From NCBI GenBank assembly GCA_040754495.1, contig JBFMCO010000028.1, forward strand, positions 1 through 64,000: a stretch of 64,000 nt of DNA, written 5' to 3'. This document shows positions 13,746-31,025 of the stretch, one piece after another. The position numbers and the translations under genes are program-made. Under the pieces are notes generated by a model. That model was not told the DNA's origin and did no database searches. It saw only the letters and a list, made by a program, of their open reading frames with translations. The stretch is from Candidatus Micrarchaeota archaeon. Lineage in GTDB: Archaea; Micrarchaeota; Micrarchaeia; Anstonellales; Bilamarchaeaceae. The number at the start of each line of letters is the position of its first letter. The stretch's first letter is position 1.

Positions 13746-13746
13746 C

Positions 13747-15666
13747 CTACCTCTCCCTCCTCTTGCGGGGCACTGCCTCTCCGGAGATGCGCTTCTCGCC
13801 CTCCCCGCCCTTGAACCATGCCCCAGGCGTAATCGTGATGTTGAGCGAACCGTACGGCGAAGCCGGGATGCGCTGCTCCTCGGGCCCGCCGACTTCGCCT
13901 AGATAGCCGCCGCGGACGTCCACCGACACTCCGCGGTCGAACCTGAAGCCGAAGACGCCGAAGCCGTCGAGCGTGTGGCTGCCGGACGAGATGTTGTAGT
14001 CGTACCTGAAGCCCGGGCTGAAGAACAGGGACCAGTTCGGGTTCAGCTGCCATGTGAAGTCGGCCGGCCTGAGCTCGGCACCGACGCGGTGCTGCTCGAG
14101 GAAATACGAGTACTGGGGGGTGATTTCGGAGCGTATCCTCATCGTGTTCCCCTCCATCCAGTTGCCCTCGAAGCTTATGTTCGCGTAAACGTTCGTCGGC
14201 GCGCCCACTATCCCCGCGCCGACCCTGGACATCCTGACCGGGGCGCGCTGGCCCTCGCGGCCCGGGAACCTCACCTCCACGCCGGTCACGCCGAGATACG
14301 CGCCCTGGTCGCCGACCTGCACCCTCTGCGTGGCGCCGGTCTGGTCCGCCACATCCGCGCCTATTTCCCACGCGCGGTAGCCGACGTTGGCATGAAGGAC
14401 GATTTCCATCGGGTTGCCCCATGCGCTCGCGCCTATGCCTATCTGCGGCGTGACGCCGATAACGTGGCCCGTTCCCTCGAGCCTGCGGCTTCCCACCTGG
14501 CGGACGCCTCCGGCTTCGCCTGCGGCGCCCGGAGTTACCTCGAACTGCCGGAGCTGGCCGCTCATGAGCAGGTATTCGTAGTGCAGGCCGAGCGCGAGCC
14601 ACAGCACGCGGGGCTGGAACTCGCTGTCCCTAGAGCCCCGGATGAACTCGGTGAATGCCTCCATGTTCCTGTCGAACTCGTACCTGACCGTGACCCCCGC
14701 CCGCATGACCGCGATGGCACGCTGGTTCACGCTGATGACGTAGAGGTTGTTGAGCTGGCCGTACACCGCGTTCAGGGCCGGCTCCTGCGACAGCTCGGCA
14801 AGGCCGGTGCGCAGGTCGCCGCGCGATAGGGCCGCCATTGCCGCGGCGAAGTGAGGATGCACCGAGGAGTTCCATATCTCCTTGTTGGATGGTATCTGGC
14901 TGAGCGACTGGTGAAGCGCCTGCGCGGCAGCCGTCTGCGCCGCGATATCGTTCGGATGGTTGGTGAGCGTAGCGTACGCGTTGCCGAGCGAGGTCATCGC
15001 GCCGACTGCGTTGCTCTCGCCGCCGAACATGGAGTTCAGGGCCGGGGTGCTGCTCGCGTTTACGGCCACGAGGCTTTCGTTCGCGGAGCTGCTAAGAAGG
15101 TGAATCGGGCCCATGTCGCGGAGCTGCGTCTCGATGAGCGGCAGGGACTGCCTTGTTGCGGCCTGGTCCTCGGCCCTCGGCGCCTGCGCAAGGGCACCGC
15201 CGCGGCTTGTGCGTATGAGGGCCGCTATCTCGGTCCCTATGGTTTCATATGAGGAGTACTGGGCCTCGCCCTGCCCGATGCCCGCATCAATCGGCACGAG
15301 CGTCCTCTCGAGCGGCTGCGCCTGGTCCCCGAGCGTCCCTCCGCCCTGCACGAGCTCGTGCGTGCGGCGGATGGCGGCGATGTGGGAGCGCACGAGGTAC
15401 GCGACCGCGCCGTCGCGGCCGTTCCCCTCGCCGAGCACCCGGATTGCCTCGTCATAGACAGCCCTGCGGGCGTCGCCTTCGGGCGGCCGGTCGCCCCTCA
15501 TGAGCGTGATGAGTTCCCCTATGCGGACCGCGTACTGCGCCTGCGACTGCGCGTTCGGCGCGTTAGTCGGATGTGTCGCGCTCATCGGCCGGCTGAGGTC
15601 GTTTATCAGCGTAATCTGAGGATTCGCAGCTTCTTCCCTTCTTTCCCGAGTCGCAGGTCCGGTCAT
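13747..15666 (-). CDS. Helical N-terminal domain plus predicted transmembrane beta-barrel domain (paralog A)
   Basis: 639 aa; about 13 alternating hydrophobic/polar strands in the C-terminal ~300 aa; clear paralog of 15859-18006; RBS GAGGTGA. Confidence 0.7.
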   Translation of the reverse strand: MTGPATRERREEAANPQITLINDLSRPMSATHPTNAPNAQSQAQYAVRIGELITLMRGDRPPEGDARRAVYDEAIRVLGEGNGRDGAVAYLVRSHIAAIRRTHELVQGGGTLGDQAQPLERTLVPIDAGIGQGEAQYSSYETIGTEIAALIRTSRGGALAQAPRAEDQAATRQSLPLIETQLRDMGPIHLLSSSANESLVAVNASSTPALNSMFGGESNAVGAMTSLGNAYATLTNHPNDIAAQTAAAQALHQSLSQIPSNKEIWNSSVHPHFAAAMAALSRGDLRTGLAELSQEPALNAVYGQLNNLYVISVNQRAIAVMRAGVTVRYEFDRNMEAFTEFIRGSRDSEFQPRVLWLALGLHYEYLLMSGQLRQFEVTPGAAGEAGGVRQVGSRRLEGTGHVIGVTPQIGIGASAWGNPMEIVLHANVGYRAWEIGADVADQTGATQRVQVGDQGAYLGVTGVEVRFPGREGQRAPVRMSRVGAGIVGAPTNVYANISFEGNWMEGNTMRIRSEITPQYSYFLEQHRVGAELRPADFTWQLNPNWSLFFSPGFRYDYNISSGSHTLDGFGVFGFRFDRGVSVDVRGGYLGEVGGPEEQRIPASPYGSLNITITPGAWFKGGEGEKRISGEAVPRKRRER

Positions 15667-15751
15667 AGATTAGTCACCTCAATAATGACGCTTTAACACT
15701 TGGGGCGTGGTTATTAAAAAGATGCCCGGCCCGGAACGTCGGTGCGGCAGG

Positions 15752-15848
15752 GCGAGGGTTTCGGGTCTCCGGTTTCCTGTTTCCGGTTTCCGGTTTCGGG
15801 TTTTGCGCTCCCGGTACGGGGGACTGGAAACCGGATGCTGGCAGCCCG
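15752..15848. repeat. Heptamer repeat element
   Basis: CCGGTTTCCTGTTTCCGGTTTCCGGTTTCGGG ... TGGAAACCGGATGCTGGCAGCCC. Confidence 0.7.
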
Positions 15849-15858
15849 TCCGCCATGC

Positions 15859-18006
15859 TTACCGCCTTTCCCCGCTGTCGGTTCCGAGCCTGACTCCGCC
15901 GCTCACGCTTCCGCTGCTCCCCCAGTACCCTGGCGTGAGCACGAGGTTGAGCGTGCCGGTGACCGAGTCCGGGACGTGGTATGCCTCCTGCCCGAAGCGG
16001 TCCATGAAGTAGCCAACGCGCGCATCAAGGGCGACCCCGCCGGCGTATCTGAAGCTCGCATGCACGTACGGCTCGAAGCTGTGGATGAGGTGCTCGGTGT
16101 TCAGGTCGTACCTCAGCCCCGGGCCGAAGTACCACGTCCAGTTCTGCCCGCTCTGGATGCTGAAGTCTATCGGCCGCAGGTCCGCGCCCACGCGGTGCTG
16201 GAAGAACCATGAGTCGTCGAGCAGCTCCTGCCTCTTCCCCCAGAACAGCATGTAGTGGGGCGTGAGCGAGGTCTCGAGGCGCAGCGCGTTGCCCTCGGTC
16301 CACCTCTGCGACAGCGTGAAATATGCGTAGGGGTTCGTGTTGAACGTGCCGAGGCCCCACCTGCTCAGCCTGAACGAGGACATCCGCCCCTCGTAGCCGA
16401 CCATGGCGACGTCGAAGTTCAGCAGCCCGTATATGCTGCCCTGGTTGACTGAGAGCCTCTCGGCGCTGCCGTTTATGTTCACGGTCTGGTCTATGTTCCA
16501 CCAGAGGTAGCCGAGCCTCCCCGTGAGCGTGGTCTCGACCGGCTGGCTGAACATGCTCCCGCCCCAGGTCACCCCCGCCTGGAGGTCTATGGCATGGCCG
16601 TCGCCTTCGACAGGGCGGGCCGGGCCGCGCGAGACGGCCTGGTTCGTGGCCGGGTCTATGGATACCGTCTGGTCCCGCCCGCTCATGAGCAGCCAGGCGT
16701 AGTTGGCGCCCACGTCATAATGCAGGACGTCCCAGGCATAAGGCCGGTCGGACGTGCCGCGCCGGTATGCCTGGAACTCGGTGATGTTCTCCTGCTCGGG
16801 GAACCTGAGTATGAGGCTGGTGCGGATGCGCGCGAGCGCCCGCTGGCTTATCGTGACCTGGTGGAGGTTGCCGAGGGAGTCGTAAACCGCGTTGAACGCG
16901 ACCTCGCGCCTCAGCGCATCGAGCCCCCCGCGGAGGTCTCCCCTTGAAAGGGCCTGCATGGCCGCTGCGAAGTTCGGGTGAACGCTCTCGTTCCATATCT
17001 CCTTGTCCGAGGGAATCCTGCTGAGTGCCGAGTGGAGCGCCCGTGCCGCATCGGCCTGCGCCGAGAGGTCGCCGGGGCTGTTCATCATCACCGCATACGC
17101 GCTCGCGAGCGTGTTCAGGGATTCCTGCGCAATGGACTCGCCGCCGAAGAGGGAGTTCAGAGCGGGCGTGGACGCGGCGTCGAGCGCCACGAACTGCCTG
17201 TTGCCGAAGCCGCTCAGGAAGAACTGCGAGCCGAAATCGAACGGGAGCATAGCTATGAGCGGGAGCGACGGGTTCGTTACAGCCCGGTCCTGCTGCGTCG
17301 GGTGGTCGGTAATCCTCCCGCCCCTTATGGCGCGGATGAGCTCGGCCACTTCTGAGCTGACCGGGTCCAGCGCCTCGTAATTGCTCTCGCCCATCGCGAC
17401 TCCGCGCTCGATGCGCACGAGCCTCTGCTCGAGGCCGGCGGTCTCTATCCTCGCGTTCTCGTCTGCGGCCACCATGCCGTGCAGCCTGTGAAGCGCGGTC
17501 GAGTACGCGCGGGTCACGGCGTCGAGGGCCGTGCCGCGGTTGTTCCCGTAGAGCGCCATCGCACGGTCGTAAACGGGCCGCCTCGCATCGCCTGATGCCG
17601 GGGGGTTGAGAAGCAGTTCGCGTATGTCGTGCAGCCTGACAAGGTTGACCGAGAGGGCTTCCATCGTCGGCGCGTTCACCGGGTGGGTGATTGCGGTGAC
17701 ATCCCCGGGCAGGGCATTCAGCGTGGTGATGAGCTGGTCGTTCGTCGGCGCGCTGGCAGTAGCTCCGCCATCGGCCCTCTGCACCGCGGCCGGCTGTCTG
17801 GGCGGGGGCGGCTGGGAGGGGCCTCCGTCCTGGGCCAGCGCGTATCCGGGCGCGATGAGGCCGGCGACTGCGAGCGTGCCCGCGACCATGAACTCCCGCG
17901 CTCTCCTCGCGGTCGCTTCAAATCTGGTGGTTCCCCGTGTTTCCTTGTCGTTGATGCCGTTTGTCAGTCTCAAGCCTATCCCCTCCCTCTGCGAATATCC
18001 ATCCAC
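15859..18006 (-). CDS. Exported protein with helical domain plus predicted transmembrane beta-barrel (paralog B)
   Basis: 715 aa; signal-like FMVAGTLAVAGLIAPGYALA/QD; amphipathic strands such as IDLQAGVTW, WYFGPGLRYDL, VALDARVGYF. Confidence 0.7.
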   Translation of the reverse strand: MDGYSQREGIGLRLTNGINDKETRGTTRFEATARRAREFMVAGTLAVAGLIAPGYALAQDGGPSQPPPPRQPAAVQRADGGATASAPTNDQLITTLNALPGDVTAITHPVNAPTMEALSVNLVRLHDIRELLLNPPASGDARRPVYDRAMALYGNNRGTALDAVTRAYSTALHRLHGMVAADENARIETAGLEQRLVRIERGVAMGESNYEALDPVSSEVAELIRAIRGGRITDHPTQQDRAVTNPSLPLIAMLPFDFGSQFFLSGFGNRQFVALDAASTPALNSLFGGESIAQESLNTLASAYAVMMNSPGDLSAQADAARALHSALSRIPSDKEIWNESVHPNFAAAMQALSRGDLRGGLDALRREVAFNAVYDSLGNLHQVTISQRALARIRTSLILRFPEQENITEFQAYRRGTSDRPYAWDVLHYDVGANYAWLLMSGRDQTVSIDPATNQAVSRGPARPVEGDGHAIDLQAGVTWGGSMFSQPVETTLTGRLGYLWWNIDQTVNINGSAERLSVNQGSIYGLLNFDVAMVGYEGRMSSFRLSRWGLGTFNTNPYAYFTLSQRWTEGNALRLETSLTPHYMLFWGKRQELLDDSWFFQHRVGADLRPIDFSIQSGQNWTWYFGPGLRYDLNTEHLIHSFEPYVHASFRYAGGVALDARVGYFMDRFGQEAYHVPDSVTGTLNLVLTPGYWGSSGSVSGGVRLGTDSGERR

Positions 18007-18015
18007 CCTCTAGTA

Positions 18016-21000
18016 TTACTGCCTTGTAGCGCTCGGCCTCACGATGAGCACCGGCGTGGTGTCGCCGTATTCGACGACCGTGTTGGCAGGCGACGCCCTC
18101 TCGAAGCACACGTGCTGCGTGCCAGCCTCGTGGCTCATGCTGCGCTCCAGGCGCGCGTCCCTGATTGGCTCAAGCGTGCCCGCACGAACCTGGTAGAGGA
18201 CGTTCTCTGCCCTCACCCTGCCGTTGTCCTCGAGGACCGGGACCCACTCGGGGCCGGTCGAGGCCGCAAGGCCCGAGCGCCTCACGCGTACGACGAAGTC
18301 GCCCCTCGTGCCGTCGCTGAGCGTAACGCCCCTCATGACCTGGCCGAGGTATCTCGGCGCTCCGGATTCGCGGTACTGCGGGTTCAGGACGTACTGTATG
18401 GGCGAGCCGGACGAATCCGTCGGGCCGAGCACCTGGTACATGAACCAGTAGTATGTGAGGTTCTGCTGGCCGTGCTGCCTCTGGTACGTGTCGAGGTCGA
18501 CCGCGGAGCCGCTCCTGGGCTGTATCATGGTGCGCGTGGCCGAGAACCGGACGCGCCTCGGGTCTCCCGAGAGCCTCTCGACGCTTATTGCGTCCTGAGC
18601 CACGTAAGCGGATATCTCCGGCGTGACCACGGTCGGCCTCGGGATGTCCGTGAGGCGGCCGCCCGTGCCGTCCGTGAGGCTTTCGAGCCCCACCTCGGCC
18701 ACCGCTATGCCAATCCTCGGGTCTACGCGGCCTGCGAAAAGGTCCTGGTCCATGGCCGCTGCGGCGTCCCTGCGGACTCTCTGCGCCTCGGCAAGGGCGG
18801 CCTCTGCCCTAGTAATATATCTTACGCCGGGGGCCGGCCTCCTCTGCGCTCCTGTCCCGGCCACGGTGGACTGCTTGAGGTCCTGCACCCGAATCGGCTG
18901 GCCGTCCGCGAGCACGACGTTGCCGCCGAGCCGGTTGGACAGCTCGGCAATCCGTATGTCGAGGATAGCAAGGAACAGCCGGTTTACCTCGCGCTGCTGC
19001 GCCGCGGCGTCGCGCGAAGAATATGAGACGGATATCTCAGTCATCCGCTCGCCGAGCGCCTGCATGAGCGGCCTGCCGGCCGGAAGCCCGTATTCGCGCG
19101 CGATGCGCTGCATCTCGGTCTTGAGCGCGCGGTCCTGCGCCTCGTACGGAGTGCCCGTCCTTATCGGCCAGGAATCCGGCGCGTTGTTGAGCATGCGCAG
19201 GAGCGACGGCGTCGAATCATCTCCGCGCGTTATCGTCTGCCTGAAGAGCTCGGCGTATGCCTGCCCCCAGCGGTAGTGGTCCATGCCCTCGTGTGCGACG
19301 CTGGCCATGGCCTCATCGCCCGGGTTCTCGCCAGGCACCCAGTGCTGGTCCACCGGGCTGACCGTGGTCCTGCGCCTGCCTGCGAACCGCTCCATGTTCG
19401 GGAATCCGCCGAGCTGGTCCACGGCCGCTATCCTGCCCATCCTGAAATCAAGGGCTCCGAAAGGCCCGGAAAGGCTCCTTCCGGACATTGTGCGCTCGGT
19501 GGCCGAGGGCCCGAAGAGCGTCGCCTCGTCCCTGAGGCTGATGAGAAGCGATATGTGCCTCTGCTCGGCCGCGGCTGCTGCGGAGCGGCGCTCGGCCGAT
19601 GTCGGGTTGGCGGCATCCGCGACGGTCACTTCGGTCGCCGGCGTCCCATATGCGGCCAGCGACGCGAACATCGCCGGGGCCTCGCTCACGGCAAGCGGCC
19701 TCGGCGCGAGCATGTTTATGGCCTCTTCGGCGTAGTTCCTCGAGATGTTCGGGTGGAACGTGCCTGCAAGGTCCGGGTAGTTCAGCAGGAACTGGGCCCT
19801 CGCGCGGCTTATTACGTCGCGGGCTGATGTCAGCGTCGCCGATGGCAGCGATGTGGGGCGCATGCCCGCGTTCGCGACCCAGAGCTCGGCCTCCCTTATC
19901 GTGGAGAGGTTGAGCGCCATCTGGAAGAGCGTATCCGATACGAGAGGTATCTGCGCTGCCGGCGGGGCGGTAGCGGTGGCGGCCAGCCAGGCGTTCGCTG
20001 CCTGTATGAGCGCATCGTCCGCGGCCATGCCCGAGTCGCGCGCGAGCTGGACGGATGTCTCGAGGAATCCCCTGGCCATGGTGAGCCTCTCCTGGCTCTG
20101 CCCGTCCACCGGGACGTATGCAGCGCCGACCCTCCTCGTTCCCATCTGGTACGGGAGATACTCGGTCTCGAAAACAGGCCTCACCGAGCGGAGCCTCGCC
20201 ACATGCTGGACGTAGCCCTCGTTGGAGAGCGGCGCCCTCCTCGATATCTGGTCATAGACGCCGTAGAGGACGTCGTCGTGCACGTACTGCTTGGACTGCA
20301 TGAGGGCCGGAATCACCGCGCGCTCGGCATCCTGCCTCTGCCTGGCCGTGACAGTCGTTCCCGGCGTAAGGCCGAGGTGCAGCTCCACGATTCTCGTGCG
20401 CACCTGCTGGGAATAAGCGTTGTACGGGTTGAACTGCGGGTCGACGAGCGTCATTGAGGCTATGGAGTAGTTCTCCCACATGGGGATGCGGTCGCTCTGG
20501 TCCATGCCGTGGCCGCGGGCGTATTCCCACATGTCCACGAGCGTGTTGACGGTCCTCTCATCAGAGGTAACGGACTGGTAGAGGTCCGCGACCACGCGGA
20601 ACGGAATCCCGGCGGTCTGGCCCGAAAGGGCCCTTGCCTGGGTAAGCCGGACCTGCATGCTAGATTCAAGGTCCTCGCGGCCGTTCCTCTTGCCGTGCGA
20701 TGTGCGCGAATAGGTGCCTGCGCGGACCGAGTCGCGCCTCTCTGCCGCCTGGAGTTCCGCCCTCGTCGGCAGGTGGCTGGAATGAATCCTCGCCACCGCG
20801 CCGTCCGCTATCGGGATGACGCCCTGGTCGAGTATGAGCCGGTAAAACGCCTGCTCCCTCTGGAAGAGCTGCCTGGCTTCTGCTATCTTGCTTGCATCCG
20901 TGCGGCCGGCCTCGAGAAGGGAGAGCATCTGCTCCATGGGCCTCTCGCCGAGCAGCCAGACGCTGGGCAGGAGCTGCGCGATGTCGCGCGCTGCCTGCGT

Positions 21001-22020
21001 CGATGCGTTAGCCGGGTCCTGGACCCACTGCGAGAGCGCGGTGTACCTGTCGTTGAGCGGGTGCGCCCTGGCCTCGGAGACGGTGTAGCCCGCCGTTGTG
21101 GCGCCGGCCTCGAGAGCGCGCCTCCGCGCGTCGACTATCTCGCCGCTGTTTCCGTCGCGGCCGTAGGCGAACCTGCGTGCCTCCGCCACCTTGTCGTCGA
21201 CGCTTCTCTGGCGGATTGGGGTGCGGTCTATCTCGCGGTTGAGCTCGCGGATGAGCCTCCCTGCCCTGTCCCGGACCGTCCTGCTCTGGCCGCTCTGCTG
21301 GATTGCGTTCAGGTCGTCCAGAAGCTGCTGGTTCTGGGTGCGGAGCGTCTCGGCCGTGACGGCCGGAACTACGACCGGCGCAGGCACCACCGTCGGGGCG
21401 GGCTGGGCGGTCTGAGCCGGCTGGGCTGGCTGCGGCGCACCGAGCGTCGGGACTACCACGGCCTGGACTGCGTCCGCTCCACCGCCGCTGAGGGCGATGT
21501 TCGTCCTGAGGAGAAGCTCGGTGAGCACTGCGTCGTTTATTGAGCTGTCCTGGGTCCTGCCGGTGAGTCCGGACCGTGTGCGCCAGGAGGAGTTGAGCCA
21601 GGTGTTGACCGAGCGGAACCTTTCCTGCGGCGTGGTGCCGGTCACTGGGATGCCGAGCCTCTGCGCGTTCGTGGCCAGAGTCTCGATGAGCGTATTGACC
21701 GGAGCGTCGAGCTGGGAAATCTCGGCAGGCACGCCGGCGCGCCTCTTCTCGTCCATGAGCCTGCGAACCGCGTCGAGCTGGGTGACGAGCGTGTCCCTCA
21801 GAGCCTCAGCAGTCCTAACATCCGCCTGCCGCGAATCCTGCGCAGCAGCCTCGCGCATACCCGGTCCAGTCATAGTAGCACCCGCCGTAAAAGCAACAAG
21901 CAGGAATCGCCCGAAATACGACGTCCTGCGCCCGATATGAACATTCCCGGAGTTAGGATTTAAATATTCGCGCTCCCCCCCGACTGAATCTTGAGAATGT
22001 CTAAGCCTCGGTCCACCCAT
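18016..22020 (-). CDS. Giant (about 1334 aa) Arg/Ala/Gln-rich, probably exported helical protein
   Basis: ATG at 22020 with GGGGAGG RBS; signal-like FLLVAFTAGATMTGPGMREAAA/QD; alternative start at 21873 (MTGPG); shares a helical module with the two barrel proteins. Confidence 0.75.
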   Translation of the reverse strand: MGGPRLRHSQDSVGGEREYLNPNSGNVHIGRRTSYFGRFLLVAFTAGATMTGPGMREAAAQDSRQADVRTAEALRDTLVTQLDAVRRLMDEKRRAGVPAEISQLDAPVNTLIETLATNAQRLGIPVTGTTPQERFRSVNTWLNSSWRTRSGLTGRTQDSSINDAVLTELLLRTNIALSGGGADAVQAVVVPTLGAPQPAQPAQTAQPAPTVVPAPVVVPAVTAETLRTQNQQLLDDLNAIQQSGQSRTVRDRAGRLIRELNREIDRTPIRQRSVDDKVAEARRFAYGRDGNSGEIVDARRRALEAGATTAGYTVSEARAHPLNDRYTALSQWVQDPANASTQAARDIAQLLPSVWLLGERPMEQMLSLLEAGRTDASKIAEARQLFQREQAFYRLILDQGVIPIADGAVARIHSSHLPTRAELQAAERRDSVRAGTYSRTSHGKRNGREDLESSMQVRLTQARALSGQTAGIPFRVVADLYQSVTSDERTVNTLVDMWEYARGHGMDQSDRIPMWENYSIASMTLVDPQFNPYNAYSQQVRTRIVELHLGLTPGTTVTARQRQDAERAVIPALMQSKQYVHDDVLYGVYDQISRRAPLSNEGYVQHVARLRSVRPVFETEYLPYQMGTRRVGAAYVPVDGQSQERLTMARGFLETSVQLARDSGMAADDALIQAANAWLAATATAPPAAQIPLVSDTLFQMALNLSTIREAELWVANAGMRPTSLPSATLTSARDVISRARAQFLLNYPDLAGTFHPNISRNYAEEAINMLAPRPLAVSEAPAMFASLAAYGTPATEVTVADAANPTSAERRSAAAAAEQRHISLLISLRDEATLFGPSATERTMSGRSLSGPFGALDFRMGRIAAVDQLGGFPNMERFAGRRRTTVSPVDQHWVPGENPGDEAMASVAHEGMDHYRWGQAYAELFRQTITRGDDSTPSLLRMLNNAPDSWPIRTGTPYEAQDRALKTEMQRIAREYGLPAGRPLMQALGERMTEISVSYSSRDAAAQQREVNRLFLAILDIRIAELSNRLGGNVVLADGQPIRVQDLKQSTVAGTGAQRRPAPGVRYITRAEAALAEAQRVRRDAAAAMDQDLFAGRVDPRIGIAVAEVGLESLTDGTGGRLTDIPRPTVVTPEISAYVAQDAISVERLSGDPRRVRFSATRTMIQPRSGSAVDLDTYQRQHGQQNLTYYWFMYQVLGPTDSSGSPIQYVLNPQYRESGAPRYLGQVMRGVTLSDGTRGDFVVRVRRSGLAASTGPEWVPVLEDNGRVRAENVLYQVRAGTLEPIRDARLERSMSHEAGTQHVCFERASPANTVVEYGDTTPVLIVRPSATRQ

Positions 22021-22230
22021 GTTAAGCAGCCTCCCCTCGTAAACACTGTTGTATATTATTTGAAACACATGGTTTTTAAACCAATCTTTTCCACCGTCGA
22101 TAACTATCCGGGAGCCCTCCCTCCGGTGCCCGGGTGCGGTGATATGGGGGATAATATGCCCGAACATGTATATAAATATTATAGAATTTGGTTGTTTGCG
22201 CCTTTTGAAGAGCAGGGGGCTCCCTAAAAC

Positions 22231-22839
22231 TCAGGCGGCCTTGGCCGCGGGCTTTGCGGACTTGCCCTTCCGGACGATGAAGCCGGCCACCTGCATGACG
22301 ATGACTAGGGCGCCCAGGGCGAGGAGGGCGTATTCCGCGATGTTGGTGGGGCGGGCGCCGGTGGTTATCCCGCTCTGGGCGAGGAAATGGAACGGTGACA
22401 GGACGAAAGCGATGTAATTGAGCTGTTGTATCCGCTTCCACCACGGCCCGAGGCGGGCGAGGGCGAGGTCGTTCGATACTGCGGCTATCACGAGGAGGAT
22501 TATGGCGGCGGCGGCCCCTATCTGCAGGGGGAGGAAACCCAGCATCATCTCTATGTTCCAGCCGAAATACAGCGCGGTTACGAGAAGGCCGTGCACGAGC
22601 ACGAAGATGAACGCGGAAAGGCCGACCGCCCTCCGCGGCTCGACTAACGGGGCGAATTCCTTCGGCCGGAAGACGAAAAGCGGGCCTATCACGAGGCTGA
22701 CGCAGAGCAGGAGGAACGCGGATACCCCCATGAATCGGATGATAAGCTGCGCAGGCTGACCTTCGAGCGTGGCGTAATAGCCGGCAACGAGCGCGAGCGT
22801 TACCAGAAGCAGGAAGAACAGCATGCTGTGTTTCTGCAT
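22231..22839 (-). CDS. Ferric reductase-like/MsrQ (YedZ) heme-binding membrane protein
   Basis: PRRAVGLSAFIFVLVH and WKRIQQLNY...PFHF motifs, multiple TM helices. Confidence 0.8.
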   Translation of the reverse strand: MQKHSMLFFLLLVTLALVAGYYATLEGQPAQLIIRFMGVSAFLLLCVSLVIGPLFVFRPKEFAPLVEPRRAVGLSAFIFVLVHGLLVTALYFGWNIEMMLGFLPLQIGAAAAIILLVIAAVSNDLALARLGPWWKRIQQLNYIAFVLSPFHFLAQSGITTGARPTNIAEYALLALGALVIVMQVAGFIVRKGKSAKPAAKAA

Positions 22840-22943
22840 GCAGATGCATCGGAAACTGGGATTAAAAAGCATCCACTAACTTCCGCGCCAGCCTGCAACC
22901 CGGCCCCCGAAAGGGCAATAAGCCTTTGGAGAATCATCTTCCC

Positions 22944-24515
22944 ATGAAGTTTGCCGGGCATATCGTGGACGTGTTCGAAGGGAAGGTGCACCCCGGGGAA
23001 ATCGAATTCGGGAAGACGGTGCTGTCGGTCCGGAAGACCGGCTCCGCCCCGGGAAGATGCATTTTGCCCGGGCTCGTCGATGCGCACGTCCATACGGAAA
23101 GCTCCATGCTGGTGCCCTCCGAGTTCGCGAGGATTGCCATGGGGCACGGCACGGTGGGCGTGGTCGCGGACCCCCACGAGATTGCGAACGTCCTCGGCCT
23201 GCGCGGGGTGGAGTTCATGATGCGCGACGCGGCACGCTCGCCGATGAAGTTCTTCTTCGGCGCATCATCGTGCGTCCCGGCAACAGGCTTCGAGACCGCC
23301 GGGGCGAAGCTCGGGCCGCGTGAAATCGGACGGCTGCTCCGCAGGAAGAATGTGACGCACCTTTCCGAGGTCATGAACTACCCTGCCGTGATAGCCAGGG
23401 AAAAGGAGGTCATGGCCAAGATAGCGCTTGCGAAAAAATACGGGAAACGAATCGACGGCCACGCGCCGGGGCTGCGGGGCAGGATGCTTGATAAGTATCT
23501 CTCGGCCGGCATCGAGACCGACCATGAATGCTTCAGGGTGGAGGAGGCCCGCGAGAAGATGGAGAAGGGGATGCGGATACTCGTGCGGGAGGGCTCGGCG
23601 GCCAAGAACCTGAAGGCCCTGCACCCGCTGCTCAAAAACAGGAACATGCTCTGCTCGGACGACACCCATCCGGACGACCTGCTGGACGGCCACCTGGATG
23701 CAATCCTTCGCAAGTGCGTGGCTCTCGGCGTTGAGCCGATTGATGCGGTGAGGTGCTGCTCGCGCAACACGGCCGAGCACTACAGGCTGCCGGTCGGCCT
23801 GCTGCGCAGGGGGGACCCGGCTGATTTCGTTGTCGTGGACGACCTTAAGCGCTTCAATGTGCTCCAGACATGGATAGGGGGGAGGATGGTTTTCGGCGGG
23901 AGGCCGCCGGAGAGGAAGAAGCCGCTAGCGCCCATTAACAACTTCAAGGCCGCGCCCATAACGGCGGATGATATACGCCCTCCCTTTTCAGGCAGGTTCC
24001 CGGTCATCGGGGCGATAGACGGCGAGATTGTCACGGAGAAGCTCTTTCACGAAGGGAAGGCGCCGGATTTGCGGCACGATATCCTGAAAATCGTGGTGAT
24101 AAACAGGTACAGGACGGCCAAGCCCGCGGTCGGGTTCATAAAGGGCTTCGGCCTGCGCAGGGGGGCGATTGGCTCGAGCGTGATGCACGACTCGCACAAT
24201 GTCGGGGTCGTCGGGGCGGACGACGAGTCCATATGCAGGGCGGCCAACCGGATAACCTCGATGAAGGGCGGGCTTGCGGTCTATGACGGAAAGATGGATT
24301 CGCTCGCCCTGCCTTATGCCGGGCTGATGAGCGGGGAGCGCGGGGAGGCAGTGGCGAAAAAATACGGCCTGCTGACGAAGAAGGCGAAAAGGATGGGATG
24401 CCGCCTGCACGCGCCGTTCATGACGCTATCTTTCATGGGCCTGCTCGTGATTCCGCACTTGAAGATATCCGACAAGGGCGTATTCGATGCTGACAGATTC
24501 AAGTTCGTCGGATAG
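22944..24515 (+). CDS. ade: Adenine deaminase
   Basis: DAHVHTESSM, DPHEIANVLG, IDGHAP, TDHEC, REGSAAKNL, HDSHN. Confidence 0.95.
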   Translation: MKFAGHIVDVFEGKVHPGEIEFGKTVLSVRKTGSAPGRCILPGLVDAHVHTESSMLVPSEFARIAMGHGTVGVVADPHEIANVLGLRGVEFMMRDAARSPMKFFFGASSCVPATGFETAGAKLGPREIGRLLRRKNVTHLSEVMNYPAVIAREKEVMAKIALAKKYGKRIDGHAPGLRGRMLDKYLSAGIETDHECFRVEEAREKMEKGMRILVREGSAAKNLKALHPLLKNRNMLCSDDTHPDDLLDGHLDAILRKCVALGVEPIDAVRCCSRNTAEHYRLPVGLLRRGDPADFVVVDDLKRFNVLQTWIGGRMVFGGRPPERKKPLAPINNFKAAPITADDIRPPFSGRFPVIGAIDGEIVTEKLFHEGKAPDLRHDILKIVVINRYRTAKPAVGFIKGFGLRRGAIGSSVMHDSHNVGVVGADDESICRAANRITSMKGGLAVYDGKMDSLALPYAGLMSGERGEAVAKKYGLLTKKAKRMGCRLHAPFMTLSFMGLLVIPHLKISDKGVFDADRFKFVG

Positions 24516-24611
24516 GTTGGTATTTTATTTTGTTCTGAAAAGAAGCATCGTAGCCAAACCTCAGGAAGTTTGATAAAAGATTTACCCTGGGAGTTGTCTC
24601 GGAAATCTTTT

Positions 24612-24908
24612 GCAGGGGTTGCCGAGTGGTCAAAGGCGCCAGATTCAGGTGCGCTTCCCTATTGAAACGATGTTTCAATGGGGCCCAAAGAACGGTTCGC
24701 CGTTCTTTGTGGTTTGGAAAAAAGCGCCCAAAAACGGGCTGTTGAAAAATCCTTCCGGATTTTTTTGCAAGTCAGTTTTGGGCCGCCTCGTCGAGAACGG
24801 CGTTCCGTTCTCGATGCGCAAGAACGCTTCGCGTTCTTGGCTGTTTCCTAAAAGGCGGAAACGTCTGGTCGGTTAGTCCGTTCGAGAGTTCAAATCTCTT
24901 CCCCTGCA
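24612..24908 (+). tRNA. tRNA-Leu(CAG) with 213-nt intron at 37/38 (24650-24862)
   Basis: 5' exon GCAGGGG...CCAGA TT CAG G; 3' exon G TCTGG...GTTCAAATCTCTTCCCCTGCA; relaxed BHB (TTCA/GGAA, bulges GG|T and AC|G). Confidence 0.9.
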
Positions 24909-24928
24909 TATACTCTTTCTTAAGTTGG

Positions 24929-25249
24929 TCAAAAGCACACGACCTTATCGCTCTTCTTTACCAGTGCGTACAGGTCTTTCAATGAGGAGATGGGGCATAA
25001 ATTATCGCCTTCTTTGTTCCTCAGCTTAAGGCAGGTACCGCACGCGAGAATGATACCGCCTGCCGACGCAAATTTTTCTGCCTCGTCCTTTGCAGGGAAT
25101 TTCTCAGTGCTTATCTCCTCATAGTCGACGGCTTTGCCCACAAGGAAAACCCTTACTTCGTCGCCTTCTTTTTTCGAGAAGTTCGCAAGCCTGAAGGCAT
25201 TCCAGGCAGCCTCTATATCGCTGGTCGAAATCACGATTCCAAGTTCCAT
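24929..25249 (-). CDS. DsrE/DsrF-family protein
   Basis: AWNAFRLAN, VRVFLVGKAV, ILACGTCLKLR, CPIS. Confidence 0.88.
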   Translation of the reverse strand: MELGIVISTSDIEAAWNAFRLANFSKKEGDEVRVFLVGKAVDYEEISTEKFPAKDEAEKFASAGGIILACGTCLKLRNKEGDNLCPISSLKDLYALVKKSDKVVCF

Positions 25250-25262
25250 GTCAATCACCTGG

Positions 25263-25883
25263 TCATTCCAGGTCCTTCTTCATCTCTTCATATTGTTTTT
25301 TTGCTATCTCTCCCCGCGCATATCTCTGCTTAAGGATCTCTGAAGCCGTAAGCGCCCTGCTAGTCCCGGTAACGCTCCGGTAAAGCCAGAATATGGCCAG
25401 AATAAGCGCGACAAACACCAATACCCAAAACACAAGGCCGACTATCCAGCCCCAGCCGCCATACCCCATCATGTCGTAACCCATCATTCCGCCGTAAGGG
25501 TAATTCATCATGCCGCCTCCAAATCCTGATCCATAGCCACCGAACCTGCCCATCATGGGCATCATGCCCATCATGCCGCCGTATGTGACGCTCGTATTCG
25601 TTTGCCCGCAGTAGAGCACAAGCGCCATCTGTACATGCGCCTGCTCAAGGCTTGCAGAGCCTTCGCCGCCCATCATCTGGTCCATAGCCTCATGGGCTTG
25701 CCCCGGATGCATCTGCTCCATAAAATATTCGCCGATTAGTTCAAGCTGCTCCTGGCTGAGCTTGTCGCAGCTGATATTGGAATCGATAAGCTGTTTCGAA
25801 GCGGTGGCGTCCTCAGTGCTCATTGTCGCGAATAAAGGAACCGCAAGCGCCATGACCAGCATCATCATTAGAAACTGCTTCAT
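25263..25883 (-). CDS. Met/Gly-rich membrane protein with C-terminal SHOCT domain
   Basis: Signal peptide, HEAMDQMMGG, GMMG repeats, TM helix, ILKQRYARGEIAKKQYEEMK. Confidence 0.88.
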   Translation of the reverse strand: MKQFLMMMLVMALAVPLFATMSTEDATASKQLIDSNISCDKLSQEQLELIGEYFMEQMHPGQAHEAMDQMMGGEGSASLEQAHVQMALVLYCGQTNTSVTYGGMMGMMPMMGRFGGYGSGFGGGMMNYPYGGMMGYDMMGYGGWGWIVGLVFWVLVFVALILAIFWLYRSVTGTSRALTASEILKQRYARGEIAKKQYEEMKKDLE

Positions 25884-26215
25884 TCTATCACCTCGGATGC
25901 GCCGGCTAAATCCCTCATCTGCTTCAATCTCTCGCTTAAAATTTCGCGGATGATATCAAACGCCTTTATGATTTTAGGGTTAGCGAGGCGATAGTAGATA
26001 TTCACTCCCTTCCTTTTAGGCACAAGAATGCCCCTGCTTTTCATTATGGTCAGGTGCTGGGAGACATTCGACTGGCTCAGATTCGTTTTCCTTGTCAGTT
26101 CGGAAACTGTCAGCTCGCCGTTGCGCAGAAGGTTTAATACCTCAAGTCTTGTAGGGCTGGAAAAGACCTTGCACATGTCGGCATGCAACCGATAAATCTC
26201 TTTATCCATAGACAT
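25880..26215 (-). CDS. ArsR/SmtB-family transcriptional regulator
   Basis: SSPTRLEVL, ELTVSEL, SQSNVSQHL, YYRL. Confidence 0.92.
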   Translation of the reverse strand: MSMDKEIYRLHADMCKVFSSPTRLEVLNLLRNGELTVSELTRKTNLSQSNVSQHLTIMKSRGILVPKRKGVNIYYRLANPKIIKAFDIIREILSERLKQMRDLAGASEVIE

Positions 26216-26240
26216 TAGGATATTCTAATAAGTTTAATAA
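26214..26240 (-). promoter_or_regulatory. Putative ArsR operator palindrome and TATA box of a leaderless transcript
   Basis: ATTAGGATATTCTAAT (26214-26229) near-perfect palindrome overlapping the start codon; TTATTAAA on minus strand about 20 nt upstream. Confidence 0.55.
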
Positions 26241-26451
26241 CCATTCATGTCGCTCGAATCCAGCACTGCTGCCGGACTTGGGGGAAGAAACCGAAAAAAG
26301 GCTTAAATCCTCTGCCCCTCGTCTGTCCTGCAGCGCTTTGGCTTAAACCCAGGCTCACAGAACGGCTCCGGGATACCCCGTATCCTTTTCTATGCCTAAG
26401 GCTAGGGGTATTGAATTCCAGAAGCGTCATTCTATGCTTTCGCGAACGCCT

Positions 26452-26646
26452 TCAGAGTTTTTTCACGTTCTTGGCGCGCGGCCCGCGCTCGCTTTGCTCG
26501 ACTTCGTATTCCACGGCATCGCCGGCTGCGAGCACTGCGCCGCCTTCAATTGCCGAGGTGTGCACATACACGTCCTTGCCGTCGTCGCCCGTGATAAATC
26601 CGAAGCTCCGTGCGGCGTTGAACATCTTTACTTTTCCTTTCATCAT
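26452..26646 (-). CDS. cspA: Cold-shock protein
   Basis: KGKVKMFN..RSFGFIT, DVYVHTSAI, RGPRAKNV. Confidence 0.95.
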   Translation of the reverse strand: MMKGKVKMFNAARSFGFITGDDGKDVYVHTSAIEGGAVLAAGDAVEYEVEQSERGPRAKNVKKL

Positions 26647-26812
26647 ATCACCTTCGTTTCATCTTACCTGCAAGGAATGTAGATGCAGAGGGTATAAAAC
26701 ATCTAGCGATGCCATCACCATTTTATTTTTAGCCCGCGAAATCAGGAACGGATGAACCAAAGCCCCTATGAACGGACTACAAACCCAAGCTGGTGAGGGG
26801 CGGCGGGGACTG

Positions 26813-26850
26813 GTTTCCGCCTTTTAGTAAAAGGCGGCCCAAAACGGGCC
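26813..26850. repeat. Double-hairpin palindromic element related to tRNA intron sequences; may terminate glmU
   Basis: CCGCCTTTTAGTAAAAGGCGG plus GCCCAAAACGGGC directly after the glmU stop. Confidence 0.75.
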
Positions 26851-26851
26851 G

Positions 26852-28084
26852 TTAAACGTCCTCCTCGAACTTGCCGAACTCAATTGGCTGCCTTGTATAG
26901 ACGCGCGAGCCTGAGGGCACGTTCTTGTTCACCACGACTCCTGAATGAATCCAGCAGTTCGAGCCGATCAGCTTGCCCGGCATCGTGCAGGAGAGCACGC
27001 CGAATTTCGTGTTGTCGCCGACGAAAACGCCAAGCTTCTTCTTGCCTGAATTCGCCCATCCCCTCTCCGTGAGGACGTTCACGTTGTCGCCGTCGAAGCG
27101 GAAATTCGCGATTTGCGTGCCTGAGCCGAAATTGACATTCTCGCCTATCACGCTGTCGCCAATATAGGTGAGATGCTTGGCATTGACGGAATCAAGAAGG
27201 ATGCTGCTTTTCACCGTGCTGCCCGGGCCGATTGAGCAGTTCTTCCCGATGCTGTTGAATCCCCGCAGGCATGCGTTCGGGCCTATGACCGTGTTTTCCC
27301 CTAGGTATGCGCACCCTTCCACGTAGCTGTTGATGATTCTCGCGCCCTTCTCCATGATTACCTTCCCTTCAATCGTGGAATTCTCGATGTGCCCGCTTTT
27401 CGCTTCCATCCCGGACAGCAGGTGCTCGTTCGCCTCGAGCAGGTCCCACGGGTACGCGATGTCCCGCCAGTAGCCTTCAACGGGCACGCCTTTCGCGCCG
27501 ACAAAAAGGCTCACCAGCTCGTACTCGCCGCGCTCGGATTTCCCGAGGGATTTGAGCTCGCTGAACACGGTAGGCTCCATGCAGTATACCGAGAGGTTCG
27601 CGAGGTCGCTCTTCGGGTGCGCGGACTTCTCCTCGAAAAGGCTTATCCGCCCGCCCGAGAGCTCTGCCACGCCGTAGTTGTGCGGGTTCGCGACCTTCTT
27701 GAGGCCGACCGTGATTCCGCCCTCGTGCGCCTCCATGACCGCATTCATCACCGAAGCTTCGGTCACGATGTCGCCGGCAAGGGCAAGGAAGGTGTCGTCC
27801 AGCAGCTCCTGCGCGCACAGCAGCGCCGCGCCGGTGCCGTTGTCTGAGCCCTGCTCGACGAATTCGAGTTTCAGCCCGAGCCCGGCACTGGAAAGGTATT
27901 CGATGAGCTTCTCCTTCATGTGACGGACGACCACGACCGCCTCCTTCACCCCGGCCTTCTTCGCCTCGAGGAGAAGGTGGTGGATGATTGGCCTGCCGCC
28001 GGCGTAGAGCATGGGCTTGGGCCTCGTCTCGGTCAGGGGTCGCAGGCGCATGCCGTCCCCGGCTGCAAGAATCACGGCTTTCAT
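26852..28084 (-). CDS. glmU: Bifunctional sugar-1-phosphate nucleotidyltransferase/acetyltransferase (archaeal GlmU type)
   Basis: MKAVILAAGDGMRLRPLTETRPKP, hexapeptide repeats, KHLTYIGDSVIG. Confidence 0.9.
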   Translation of the reverse strand: MKAVILAAGDGMRLRPLTETRPKPMLYAGGRPIIHHLLLEAKKAGVKEAVVVVRHMKEKLIEYLSSAGLGLKLEFVEQGSDNGTGAALLCAQELLDDTFLALAGDIVTEASVMNAVMEAHEGGITVGLKKVANPHNYGVAELSGGRISLFEEKSAHPKSDLANLSVYCMEPTVFSELKSLGKSERGEYELVSLFVGAKGVPVEGYWRDIAYPWDLLEANEHLLSGMEAKSGHIENSTIEGKVIMEKGARIINSYVEGCAYLGENTVIGPNACLRGFNSIGKNCSIGPGSTVKSSILLDSVNAKHLTYIGDSVIGENVNFGSGTQIANFRFDGDNVNVLTERGWANSGKKKLGVFVGDNTKFGVLSCTMPGKLIGSNCWIHSGVVVNKNVPSGSRVYTRQPIEFGKFEEDV

Positions 28085-28178
28085 GTTTCTCCCGATGGTA
28101 AAATCCGCGACTGTGTTTAAGTTATTTGTGATATATCAACATAATCATTTATAAACTGTAACAAACAAATCAGCACCT

Positions 28179-29024
28179 ATGCCGGGGAGGAAGAGGCTTG
28201 CTTACGGGGATGGGGAGGGGGTGGAGGCGCGGAGGCCGAAGCTCATCAGGACGCTTGTTTTCGGCTCAGCTTTTTTTGCGGCCATGACCGCGTGCACTCC
28301 ATGCACCAATGCCGTGCCAATAAGGGAACCCGCGGTGGAGAGGCCGCGCAGGGCGCCGCCTGCCACGGAAAGCGCAGGGCATGCCGAGAGCCCAGGGGCG
28401 CCTTCATGCAGGTTCAGCGGGAGAACGCTTGAGTATTCCACCAATGATACCGTCATGAGGCTGGTCAATCTGCTCGATAGCGGCGAGAGCGTGAGGGAGG
28501 TAATTTGCCGCAGGGACCGCGCTTTCGTGCTCACAGACACAAGCCGCATAATCGTGCGGCCGGGCTCCGGCAACCAGTTGCCTGATGGGGACGGGACAGC
28601 CATAAGCCATTTAGCGTCTTACACGCGGACGGATATGGCCGGGCTGAATTCGAGGGGCATCGTGGACTGGGAGGCAACGGATTCTGCCTGCTATTTCCTC
28701 ACCAGGGACAGGAGGCTGACGGTGCTCGCGAACGACGAGCTCGGGGATACGGTTCCCGAATACGAGCTTCCCTTCGACACGGCGGGCCTCGGCCGCAACA
28801 GGATGGCCTTCCACTCGGGGTTCATTTTCATAGCGCCGCTTTCCGGGAGCGCGGTAGTGATGTCTTTCGGGGAGAACGCGGGGGCCTCTTACCTGCCGCT
28901 CGAATCAGCCGACAGGAGGGCGGGGTTCATAGTGAGGGGGGACAGGCTGTTCTTCGGAAAAAACGGAAAGGAAAAAGAGATAATAATAGGCGGGCCTGAT
29001 GCGCACGACGTCAGCGTCAGATGA
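28179..29024 (+). CDS. Membrane-anchored/secreted hypothetical protein, beta-rich
   Basis: 281-aa ORF with hydrophobic segment LVFGSAFFAAMTAC. Confidence 0.65.
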   Translation: MPGRKRLAYGDGEGVEARRPKLIRTLVFGSAFFAAMTACTPCTNAVPIREPAVERPRRAPPATESAGHAESPGAPSCRFSGRTLEYSTNDTVMRLVNLLDSGESVREVICRRDRAFVLTDTSRIIVRPGSGNQLPDGDGTAISHLASYTRTDMAGLNSRGIVDWEATDSACYFLTRDRRLTVLANDELGDTVPEYELPFDTAGLGRNRMAFHSGFIFIAPLSGSAVVMSFGENAGASYLPLESADRRAGFIVRGDRLFFGKNGKEKEIIIGGPDAHDVSVR

Positions 29025-29735
29025 CTAGCCGCGCTCGCGCTCCGCCCTGCTTCTCCACCGGACATCTATTCGGCTGATGACATCAAGGTCCGGGGTTTCG
29101 CCCCTGGCGTGCGCGCTGGCGAACTCCCTCTGGATGGCCACGTACGCAGGCCTCGCGGCGGCCATGAACTGGTCCCGGGTAAGCATGACTTCCCTGCCCT
29201 GGGCGTCGGTCGTGGTTATCCGGAAGTCGCTCGGCGCCGCGCTTTCGAGGTAGGTTATGAGCCTGCCGCCCTTCGTCTGGTCCGCGCGCGTCATGGTACC
29301 GCTCCACCTCAGGTCCCGGTTCGCGTCTATGGTATATGTCCGGCCGTCCACCGTGACCTCGTAGGAATGCCTGTGCGTCATGACCGGCGCGGGAGGCGTC
29401 CTGAGGGTGATTTCCGGCGAGATGTTCCGGATGCCGAGGTTCCTGTTGAGAAGCCTGCGGGCCTCGTCGAACCTCTTGTTGAGGCGGTGGTTGAGGATTT
29501 CGTTAAGCCTCGTAGCCACATTCATGAAGTCGCCTTGGGCCATGTAGGGCGGAACTACGACCCCCTCCCTTCCCCTTGCCACCTGGTCGGCGCGGGTGTA
29601 AATCTCACGCGCCTGCAGCGGGGAATATCCGAGCGCCTGCAACTGGGATATAACGGTCCTCTGGACCTCCTGCTGGGTAAGCCCCGTTGTCTCTTCCGCT
29701 CCTCCTCTCCTCCTCTGGGCTGGTGCTCCTGTCAT
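29025..29735 (-). CDS. Arg/Gln-rich hypothetical protein, tandem paralog 1 (MTGAPAQRR)
   Basis: RBS AGGTG; PVMT...YEVTVDGRTY matches the neighbouring paralogs. Confidence 0.75.
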   Translation of the reverse strand: MTGAPAQRRRGGAEETTGLTQQEVQRTVISQLQALGYSPLQAREIYTRADQVARGREGVVVPPYMAQGDFMNVATRLNEILNHRLNKRFDEARRLLNRNLGIRNISPEITLRTPPAPVMTHRHSYEVTVDGRTYTIDANRDLRWSGTMTRADQTKGGRLITYLESAAPSDFRITTTDAQGREVMLTRDQFMAAARPAYVAIQREFASAHARGETPDLDVISRIDVRWRSRAERERG

Positions 29736-29744
29736 AATAACACC

Positions 29745-30401
29745 TCACGGGTTCCTCGTCCGCCTGCCCTGCTGGGGCGCCATGGCGATGCGTATGTCCG
29801 GCCGCTCCACGTACTGGCCGTTCGTGTAGGTCCTTCCGACATAATCGTCGCGGAAGATGTCGAGCCTCTGGTTCGGCGCGCCTGAGTTGAATGCGGCCGA
29901 TTCGGCATCCCTTCCGACGCGCGTAACCTGCGCATACACGACCTGCCCTCCGCTTTCCACGAGCTTGTTGTTGAGGAGGAGGTCGTGGAGGATGGCCCTT
30001 GCGGCAACTTCATCCACCCTGCCGTTCGGCCTTGTCGGGAGGGGGTCCGGAAGGGCGACCTGGTAGGTCCTGTTGCCGAGCGTGACTTCATACACAGTAG
30101 CTTGGGTCATGCGTGGAGCCGGCCTTGGCTGCTGCGTCGGGGCCGGAGGCTGCGCCCTCTGCGGCACGGGCGAGAGCTGGGTGGGCTGCTGGCCGAGCTG
30201 CCGGGCAACCTCCTTCAGGCGCTCGGCTGCCTCCGCAAGGCGCTCGCTCTGCTCCATGAGCCTGCGCGCCTGGCTTGGCGGGATGGGCGAGCGAATCGGC
30301 GACAGGGCGTTTGCGATGTCCATCAGGGCGTCCCTTACCACCCTCAGCGTTCTATCCTGCTCCGTTTCCCGTTCTGGCCTTCTTTGTGCTGGTCCCGTCA
30401 T
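29745..30401 (-). CDS. Arg/Gln-rich hypothetical protein, tandem paralog 2 (MTGPAQRR)
   Basis: RBS AGGTGA; C-terminal region near-identical to paralog 3. Confidence 0.8.
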   Translation of the reverse strand: MTGPAQRRPERETEQDRTLRVVRDALMDIANALSPIRSPIPPSQARRLMEQSERLAEAAERLKEVARQLGQQPTQLSPVPQRAQPPAPTQQPRPAPRMTQATVYEVTLGNRTYQVALPDPLPTRPNGRVDEVAARAILHDLLLNNKLVESGGQVVYAQVTRVGRDAESAAFNSGAPNQRLDIFRDDYVGRTYTNGQYVERPDIRIAMAPQQGRRTRNP

Positions 30402-30410
30402 CAAATCACC

Positions 30411-31025
30411 TTAAGGATTCCTCGTCCGCCTGCCCTGCTGGGGCGCCATGGCGATGCGTATGTCCGGCCGCTCCACGTACTGGCCGTTCGTGTAGGTCCT
30501 TCCGACATAATCGTCGCGGAAGATGTCGAGCCTCTGGTTCGGCGCGCCTGAGTTGAATGCGGCCGATTCGGCATCCCTTCCGACGCGCGTAACCTGCGCA
30601 TACACGGCCTGCCCTCCGCTCTCGACAAGCCTGTTGTTGAGGAGGAGGTCGTGGAGGATGGCCCTTGCGGCCACTTCATCGACCTGGCCGCTGCGGGTGG
30701 TCGGGAGGGCCTGGGGAAGGGCGACCTGGTAGGTCCTGTTCCCGAGGTTGACCTGATAGACGAATGCCTGCGTCATCTGTGGTGCCGGCCTCGGCTGCTG
30801 GACCGGACCGGCCTGCTGGGGCGTCTTCTGCGGCACGGGCGAGGGGCGGCTCAGAAGGTTCTCGATTGTGTTGAGAAGCTCCCGCAGCGCGTCCCTTAAG
30901 CGCTCCAGTACCGGCCTCGGAGGCGGCCTGATTTGCACTTCCTGCCTAAATCTCTCGAGCGCCTCCGGATTGATCGTTATTACATGCTGCTCCGCTTCAG
31001 GTCTTCTTTGTGCGGGTCCAGTCAT
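30411..31025 (-). CDS. Arg/Gln-rich hypothetical protein, tandem paralog 3 (MTGPAQRR)
   Basis: 189-bp identity with paralog 2 at the 3' end; divergent helical N-terminus. Confidence 0.8.
   Translation of the reverse strand: MTGPAQRRPEAEQHVITINPEALERFRQEVQIRPPPRPVLERLRDALRELLNTIENLLSRPSPVPQKTPQQAGPVQQPRPAPQMTQAFVYQVNLGNRTYQVALPQALPTTRSGQVDEVAARAILHDLLLNNRLVESGGQAVYAQVTRVGRDAESAAFNSGAPNQRLDIFRDDYVGRTYTNGQYVERPDIRIAMAPQQGRRTRNP

Follow-up and report, generated by a model that had tools for sequence, protein, structure and literature searches.

How does a predicted membrane barrel without a signal peptide come to share its first residues with small proteins to which it shows no detectable homology? 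The question is raised by bases 1–64,000 of contig C28 (hereafter the window, the whole stretch of DNA that was analysed) from G000, the genome of a tiny symbiotic member of Candidatus Micrarchaeota. Here the gene for barrel A (13747–15666, 639 amino acids), three small genes termed P1–P3 and an in-frame site within a 1,334-residue giant protein, all encoded on the minus strand like every window feature named below, carry variants of one short sequence around Met-Thr-Gly-Pro. A preliminary description had listed these five sites, and all were located where it had placed them, including the giant's copy, in frame at 21873 behind a GGTG-N5 element whose spacing matches that of two of the small genes. 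We find that the shared residues belong to an N-terminal tag carried by at least 15 families without detectable mutual homology in one Micrarchaeota genus, and that it has the look of an address label or processing mark not described before.

We compared N-termini with chance expectation across the source genome (1.63 Mb in 72 contigs, 80% complete), for which a crude home-made caller gave ~1,609 genes. T-G-P proved to be the most over-represented tripeptide after Met1, occurring 7 times against 0.37 expected (Poisson p = 1.5e-7; by our own arithmetic, counting a near-identical pair once leaves 6 and p ~3e-6), so that the motif as first described is indeed enriched. When the identical pipeline was run on G157, a whole same-genus relative (92% complete, median ortholog identity to G000 66%), the top tripeptide was A-Q-P, with 8 occurrences against 0.31 expected (p = 1.7e-9). 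The negative control G302, an 800-kb sample from another genus of the same family, contained no tag-like set, its best tripeptide reaching p = 3e-5. The gene content of the examined sequence is archaeal.

The tag spans ~10–12 residues, contains no hydrophobic stretch and follows the consensus M-[A/T/G]-[Q/G]-[P/A/T]-x-[Q/T/R]-[R/K]-[R/E]-[P/R]-[E]. Among 53 tags from three families, collected genus-wide, position 2 is Ala, Thr or Gly in 46 (A30, T10, G6), position 3 is Gln or Gly in 44 (Q27, G17), position 4 is Pro, Ala or Thr in 42, with Pro commonest, and position 7 is Arg or Lys in 27; a basic, then acidic stretch is conserved over positions 6–12. Positions 2 and 3 are coupled, with A-Q, T-G and G-G in use and T-Q almost never. 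Tags are polar throughout, no tagged protein has a hydrophobic N-terminal segment, and both AlphaFold models predict the tag to be disordered, with predicted local distance difference test (pLDDT) scores of 58 in P2 and 36 in barrel A (residues 1–13).

Tags sit exactly at real translation starts. Several have a stop 1–3 codons upstream, and Shine-Dalgarno spacing is conserved; barrel A, which opens with M-T-G-P-A-T-R-E-R-R-E-E (first 12 codons, 15631–15666), has a stop one codon upstream and a Shine-Dalgarno sequence, GAGGTGA (15674–15680), read directly 7 nucleotides ahead of its start. Selection on the tag acts at the protein level. The preliminary description had pointed to differing Thr codons (ACC, ACA, ACG and ACT), which we confirm; tags draw on the full set of four codons for Thr and likewise for Pro, DNA upstream of the tag starts is unrelated except for the Shine-Dalgarno sequence, and barrel A orthologs retain Arg across codon families (CGG versus AGG). 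Its account of a protein-level N-terminal motif on mutually non-homologous proteins without signal peptides therefore stands, and the motif is kept in orthologs.

What orthologs keep is the tag, in a dialect of their own genome. Paired proteins retain it while its head switches from M-T-G in G000 to M-A-Q in G157, as seen for barrel A, P1, P3, proteins encoded on contigs C19 and C21, an M23 peptidase and the internal start of the giant; when 440 ortholog pairs were compared automatically, four of the five A-Q pairs of G157 correspond to T-G in G000. Two families are reversed (A-G in G000, T-G in G157), which makes dialect a strong preference and not a rule. That unrelated families of one genome use the same dialect points to a single trans-acting factor common to them, either a reader or a processing enzyme. 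Across genomes, co-variation between families is suggestive: a tree of the giant's orthologs implies at least four separate origins of Gly at the third tag position, and this residue goes together with Gly at the same position of barrel A (14 genomes, Fisher p = 0.003 in a naive test). A survey of 401 genomes for GGTG-N4-7 followed by M-A-Q-P codons returned 5 matches in G157 and 0–2 elsewhere, but because dialects are genome-specific, this pattern is too narrow to gauge breadth.

The barrels indicate what the tag may stand in for. Barrel A consists of the tag, a helical domain and a predicted 12–14-stranded membrane-type beta-barrel. Its AlphaFold2 model (pLDDT 81.6) has long strands across residues 308–612, and VIA-align superposed it on CymA, FapF, EspP, KdgM and OmpG with Z scores of 14–15.7 and root-mean-square deviations of 2.8–3.8 Å over 170–240 residues; Foldseek E-values for the model were not significant by themselves. 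The model thus predicts a closed barrel resembling bacterial outer-membrane channels. At its N-terminus barrel A has no Sec signal peptide, the tag occupying that place. Its paralog barrel B (15859–18006, 39–40% identity) has a classical signal peptide, with basic and hydrophobic regions and an A-x-A↓Q cleavage site (arrow), and has no tag; B aligns to A from just past this peptide, exactly where A bears its tag. That a predicted membrane barrel has no signal peptide and its paralog has one supports the view that the tag replaces the signal peptide.

Among 21 genomes of the genus, 16 have barrel A, whose orthologs keep the tag in their own dialect, and in eight genomes of the genus a tag-type barrel is the sole barrel. 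At four single-barrel loci a signal-peptide-like extension is followed by AGGTG-N6 or GGTG-N5, an ATG and the tag. Two-barrel genomes have the signal peptide only on B and the tag only on A, an arrangement that would fit a split of roles between the copies once the gene had duplicated. Signal peptides of the genus (that of the window gene at 15859–18006 and those of its orthologs, loci L032–L036) end in A-x-A↓Q-[D/E/N]-G-P, so that the mature N-terminus would be Gln followed by a P/Q-rich linker, resembling the tag minus its Met. The section of the window that holds the clustered genes for an adhesin, the barrels and the giant (12000–22000) has a G+C content of 64–67%, compared with ~60% in the remaining window.

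The same succession is found inside the giant protein (18016–22020; 1,334 amino acids from the Met at 22020), whose architecture is the same in 25 genomes: a basic tail, a hydrophobic segment, an internal start with tag, A-x-A-Q and a long body. All 25 orthologs have the basic tail and a hydrophobic segment of 12–15 residues at the N-terminus. In G000 this signal-peptide-like segment (21874–21918) directly precedes the internal start and its tag, M-T-G-P-G-M-R-E-A-A-A-Q (21838–21873), which follows the dialect of each genome. The internal start codon is kept in 25 of 25 orthologs (Met in 24, TTG in one), and GGTG lies five bases before the internal ATG in 24 of the 25. At 21879–21882 this GGTG is read in frame as the Gly codon GGT and then G, although GGT makes up only 4–6% of Gly codons. 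Its conservation on a rare codon is strong evidence, at the level of sequence, for a putative in-frame ribosome-binding site inside the giant open reading frame, which would yield a short form without the hydrophobic segment. The G157 ortholog aligns from residue 1, so the giant's M-T-G-P is internal; of the earlier claim, its presence in frame holds and its reading as the protein's N-terminus does not. A genome-wide scan for nested starts after hydrophobic segments clearly recovered only the giant family, a family on contig C16 having been seen separately.

The three small genes lie close together: P1 (29025–29735, 236 amino acids, tag 29700–29735), P2 (29745–30401, 218 amino acids, tag 30366–30401 behind GGTG-N5) and P3 (30411–31025, 204 amino acids, tag 30990–31025), the first gene of the operon. 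P1, the distant member, starts M-T-G-A-P-A-Q-R-R-R, and P2 and P3 both start M-T-G-P-A-Q-R-R-P-E. GGTG-N5 precedes two of the three; P3 has no Shine-Dalgarno sequence and an A/T-rich box ~20 nucleotides upstream, and its transcript may be leaderless. Two of the proteins share 67% identity; what ties the third to them are homologs in other genomes and a C-terminal domain common to all three. They thus form one family, not the three independent, unrelated cases first supposed. Members of the family turned up in 9 of 28 genomes sampled from the genus and in 0 of ~370 other Micrarchaeota. In the AlphaFold2 model of P2 (m642ffe330006) the C-terminal 110 residues form a small alpha/beta domain with pLDDT >94, next to a disordered tag; Foldseek searches with this domain gave no Protein Data Bank match below E 0.09. 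Short Arg-rich tails (R-R-T-R-N-P and R-K-R-R-E-R, for instance) close the P-family proteins as well as both barrels and stay basic across the family alignment A2.

Beyond the window, a six-frame scan of G000 revealed four further M-T-G-P starts. They belong to an M23 peptidase of 365 amino acids (C41:47698–48795, locus L113:9699–10796, minus strand; Pfam 5.8e-22), a C14 gene cut off at the contig end, a 137-residue HEAT-like protein on C19 and a 99-residue protein on C33; genes on C49 and C21 start with M-T-G-Q, and proteins of 6,000–7,000 residues likewise begin with tag-like heads. The G157 ortholog of the M23 peptidase carries the M-A-Q form. The specific link to a barrel system proposed in the preliminary description accordingly falls away: the tag is genome-wide, and other contigs have it on giant kinase-bearing proteins, the M23 peptidase and small orphans. 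Pfam gave no match for any window protein or for most tagged proteins, the exceptions being M23, GDSL and AAA+ domains. For the tagged set, loosely defined, the G302 sample contained a homolog of 0 of 21 members, compared with 491 of 1,588 other genes, which speaks for lineage specificity. Tagged genes are poor in Cys (0.67% versus 1.39%) and ~4% higher in G+C; housekeeping and ribosomal genes carry no tag, and some of the looser start matches clearly have no relation to it.

The M23 peptidase is tagged and without a signal peptide, though an archaeon should have no peptidoglycan of its own. In G157, five consecutive large same-strand genes (C2:3–30508, 805–2,895 amino acids, with orthologs on G000 contigs C16 and C49) include one GDSL lipase domain and have tag-like heads on most members; in the 1,977-residue product of one of them, a hydrophobic segment is followed by a second, internal tag. 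A double AAA+ (Cdc48-like) ATPase (G157 C3:62546–65257, locus L089:2546–5257, minus strand; G000 C45:30517–34713) has a long Q/P-rich N-terminal extension and an M-A-Q start in both genomes, which makes it a possible unfoldase candidate; this start may be unrelated to the tag.

What does the tag do? Our preferred reading, which we put forward tentatively, is that it serves in sorting or recognition, independently of Sec, and is read by a single shared factor. Proteins without Sec signals (the barrel, the M23 peptidase, the enzyme-bearing giants and the small orphans) would all be brought to the same partner, most probably a pathway independent of Sec that leads to the envelope or to a host cell. 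In the giant and in single-copy barrel families, the nested start would allow one gene to supply two products, a long form routed through Sec and a short form headed by the tag, roles that appear to be split in two-barrel genomes, with the signal peptide on B and the tag on A. With less confidence still, and only as a possibility, we consider the tag a delivery signal that takes unfolded barrels, the peptidase and giant enzyme-bearing effectors by an unknown Sec-independent route to the cell's own envelope or to a host, nested starts supplying both forms.

Several observations weigh against a sorting or recognition tag. We identified neither a machine for export nor a receptor, a cleavage site or a localisation, and no machine is singled out by the FtsK-like and PilB-type ATPases, which are equally present in the tag-less control G302. 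No receptor, shell or compartment gene was noticed adjoining tagged genes, no search by family having been aimed at one. The co-variation of dialects comprises three phylogenetically independent pairs, two concordant and none opposite, and is significant in the naive test only. The giant's internal tag matches other tags in its first four residues only, and a loosely tag-like start is found on the double AAA+ ATPase, a protein expected in the cytoplasm. The home-made caller supplied both the genes and their starts, and the full scans cover two genomes of the genus, G000 and G157.

The main rival, which we regard as unlikely, is that the tag caps the N-terminus, for maturation or stability, and is not an address. 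Removal of Met requires a small second residue, and X-Pro bonds withstand aminopeptidases; a tag whose Met is removed and whose X-Pro bond blocks trimming, or sets acetylation, would protect long-lived or exposed proteins, its dialect reflecting the specificity of a Met aminopeptidase or acetyltransferase. The predominance of Ala, Thr and Gly at position 2, the preference for Pro at position 4, the coupling of positions 2 and 3 and the fact that the giant's internal start has just these first four residues in common with other tags all fit such a cap. It leaves unexplained the conserved basic-then-acidic stretch at positions 6–12, the restriction to lineage-specific proteins without signal peptides, and how a barrel without a signal peptide arrives at a membrane.

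We think it improbable that the peptide is a by-product of a feature of the start read in RNA, such as an initiation enhancer or the target of a regulatory RNA or protein defining one regulon. Tags do always lie at Shine-Dalgarno-led or leaderless starts; many contain AGG, AGA or GAG purine runs, and rare A-ending codons are frequent, GGA providing 9 of 14 tag Gly codons (our own count) compared with 14% genome-wide, with CAA prominent in G157. Yet in all genes of G000 and G157 a strong start-proximal bias enriches A/T-ending codons 2–3-fold in codons 2–11 (CAA, for example, reaches 21–24% there versus 6–7% elsewhere). The rare A-ending codons of the tags fit this general bias, which argues for real starts and not for an RNA motif, and rare-codon use was set aside as a sign of one because the bias largely explains it. 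Third positions of Thr and Pro vary freely, Arg persists in barrel A orthologs through changes of codon family, housekeeping and ribosomal genes are untagged, and no nucleotide motif is common to both dialects.

A role as a degradation or quality-control mark, by which potentially self-toxic effector-like proteins would be kept low or passed to a Cdc48-like AAA+ unfoldase or proteasome, is similarly improbable. A disordered tag exposed at the N-terminus, its presence on giant enzyme-bearing proteins and the occurrence of AAA+ unfoldases in the genus would suit such a mark; no protease link was found, however, and the exchange of signal peptide for tag within the barrel family would go unexplained. 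We know of no N-degrons of this form in archaea.

Nor do we give better odds to a functionless relic, whether what remains of the c-region and cleavage site after a signal peptide was lost or a 5′ module that recombination spread among young genes. The likeness of tags to the c-region and A-x-A↓Q site of the genus signal peptides would fit such an origin, as would the tag start right behind a signal-peptide-like segment in several families. Against this, the tag is kept across a genus with 66% median ortholog identity while the adjoining linker diverges, the tagged genes have no upstream DNA in common and differ at synonymous sites, most tagged families have no upstream signal peptide in any genome, and concerted dialect shifts require ongoing selection. 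Chance similarity or start mis-annotation, which the crude caller and the clearly unrelated loose matches might bring to mind, is scarcely credible given the p values in two genomes, the clean negative control, the stops shortly upstream of several tag starts and the conserved Shine-Dalgarno spacing.

If the tag is a sorting or recognition signal, its interest lies in the placement of proteins on the surface of DPANN archaea and their transfer to hosts, for which the mechanism is not known. Archaeal sorting signals are few beyond Sec, Tat (twin-arginine translocation) and prepilin-type peptides. As a short consensus mark on a lineage-specific "interaction" gene set, the tag would give a sequence handle on candidate surface and effector proteins in uncultured cells, including the giants and a porin-like barrel without a signal peptide, and would serve as bait for finding its reader. 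The nested start, genus-wide and apparently split between paralogs after duplication, would be a clean natural case of paired archaeal proteoforms.

Known systems resemble the tag in part. Tat and Sec signals have in common with it the N-terminal position, often paired Arg residues and often a small-x-Ala-Gln run like that at the signal-peptidase sites of the genus. A Tat signal was rejected: tags have no hydrophobic h-region, and a search for TatC (PF00902) that matched 11 of 14 control genomes detected none in G000 (80% complete), G157 (92%) or G302. With none found in the three genomes, the paired Arg residues of signal peptides are best read as Sec n-regions. The 7–15-residue hydrophobic core that a class I Sec signal has between n-region and A-x-A site is missing from tagged proteins and present in barrel B and in the long form of the giant. 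Type III secretion signals, within the first 15–25 residues, are likewise disordered, non-hydrophobic and at the extreme N-terminus of effector-like proteins without Sec peptides; they differ in having no sequence consensus, whereas the tag has one, and the organism here is an archaeon. Export of this kind was also rejected, the FHIPEP/SctV gate (PF00771) not being found in the incomplete genomes G000 and G157.

N-terminal markers of effectors include prePAAR of type VI secretion effectors and the LXG domains of type VIIb secretion toxins. Like the tag, they mark polymorphic, lineage-specific, effector-like proteins with small helper genes, but they are folded domains or motifs linked to transmembrane segments and have no similarity to it in sequence or fold; we know of no secretion systems of these types in archaea. 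None of the tests of membership that depend on a known machine places the tag in a known system.

The nearest known parallels, alongside type III secretion signals with their long and short proteoforms, are the short consensus peptides that target unrelated cargo, namely the peroxisomal targeting signal PTS2, encapsulin and microcompartment peptides and the capsid-targeting sequence of phage T4. Each is an N-terminal peptide of ~10 residues recognized on unrelated cargo (at least 15 families here) by one receptor; their sequences are unrelated to the tag, whose cargo includes proteins of 6,000–7,000 residues and a membrane barrel.

Finally, the nested starts parallel known dual-start genes, such as phage holin/antiholin, SctQ/SpaO, CheA and ClpB, in which a conserved internal Shine-Dalgarno sequence and ATG give two products; here a conserved in-frame putative ribosome-binding site and start occur in 24 of 25 giant orthologs and at four single-barrel loci. 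The predicted forms described here differ by a whole signal-peptide-like segment, and the head of the short form recurs on unrelated genes. In Salmonella, alternative in-frame starts give long and short forms of SseL with and without a targeting signal (PMC13515050), and the same review lists the barrels OmpX and PagC as candidate proteoform pairs (PMC13515050). The arrangement in the Micrarchaeota genus differs from that of SseL in that the short form bears the tag and the long form a Sec-like peptide.

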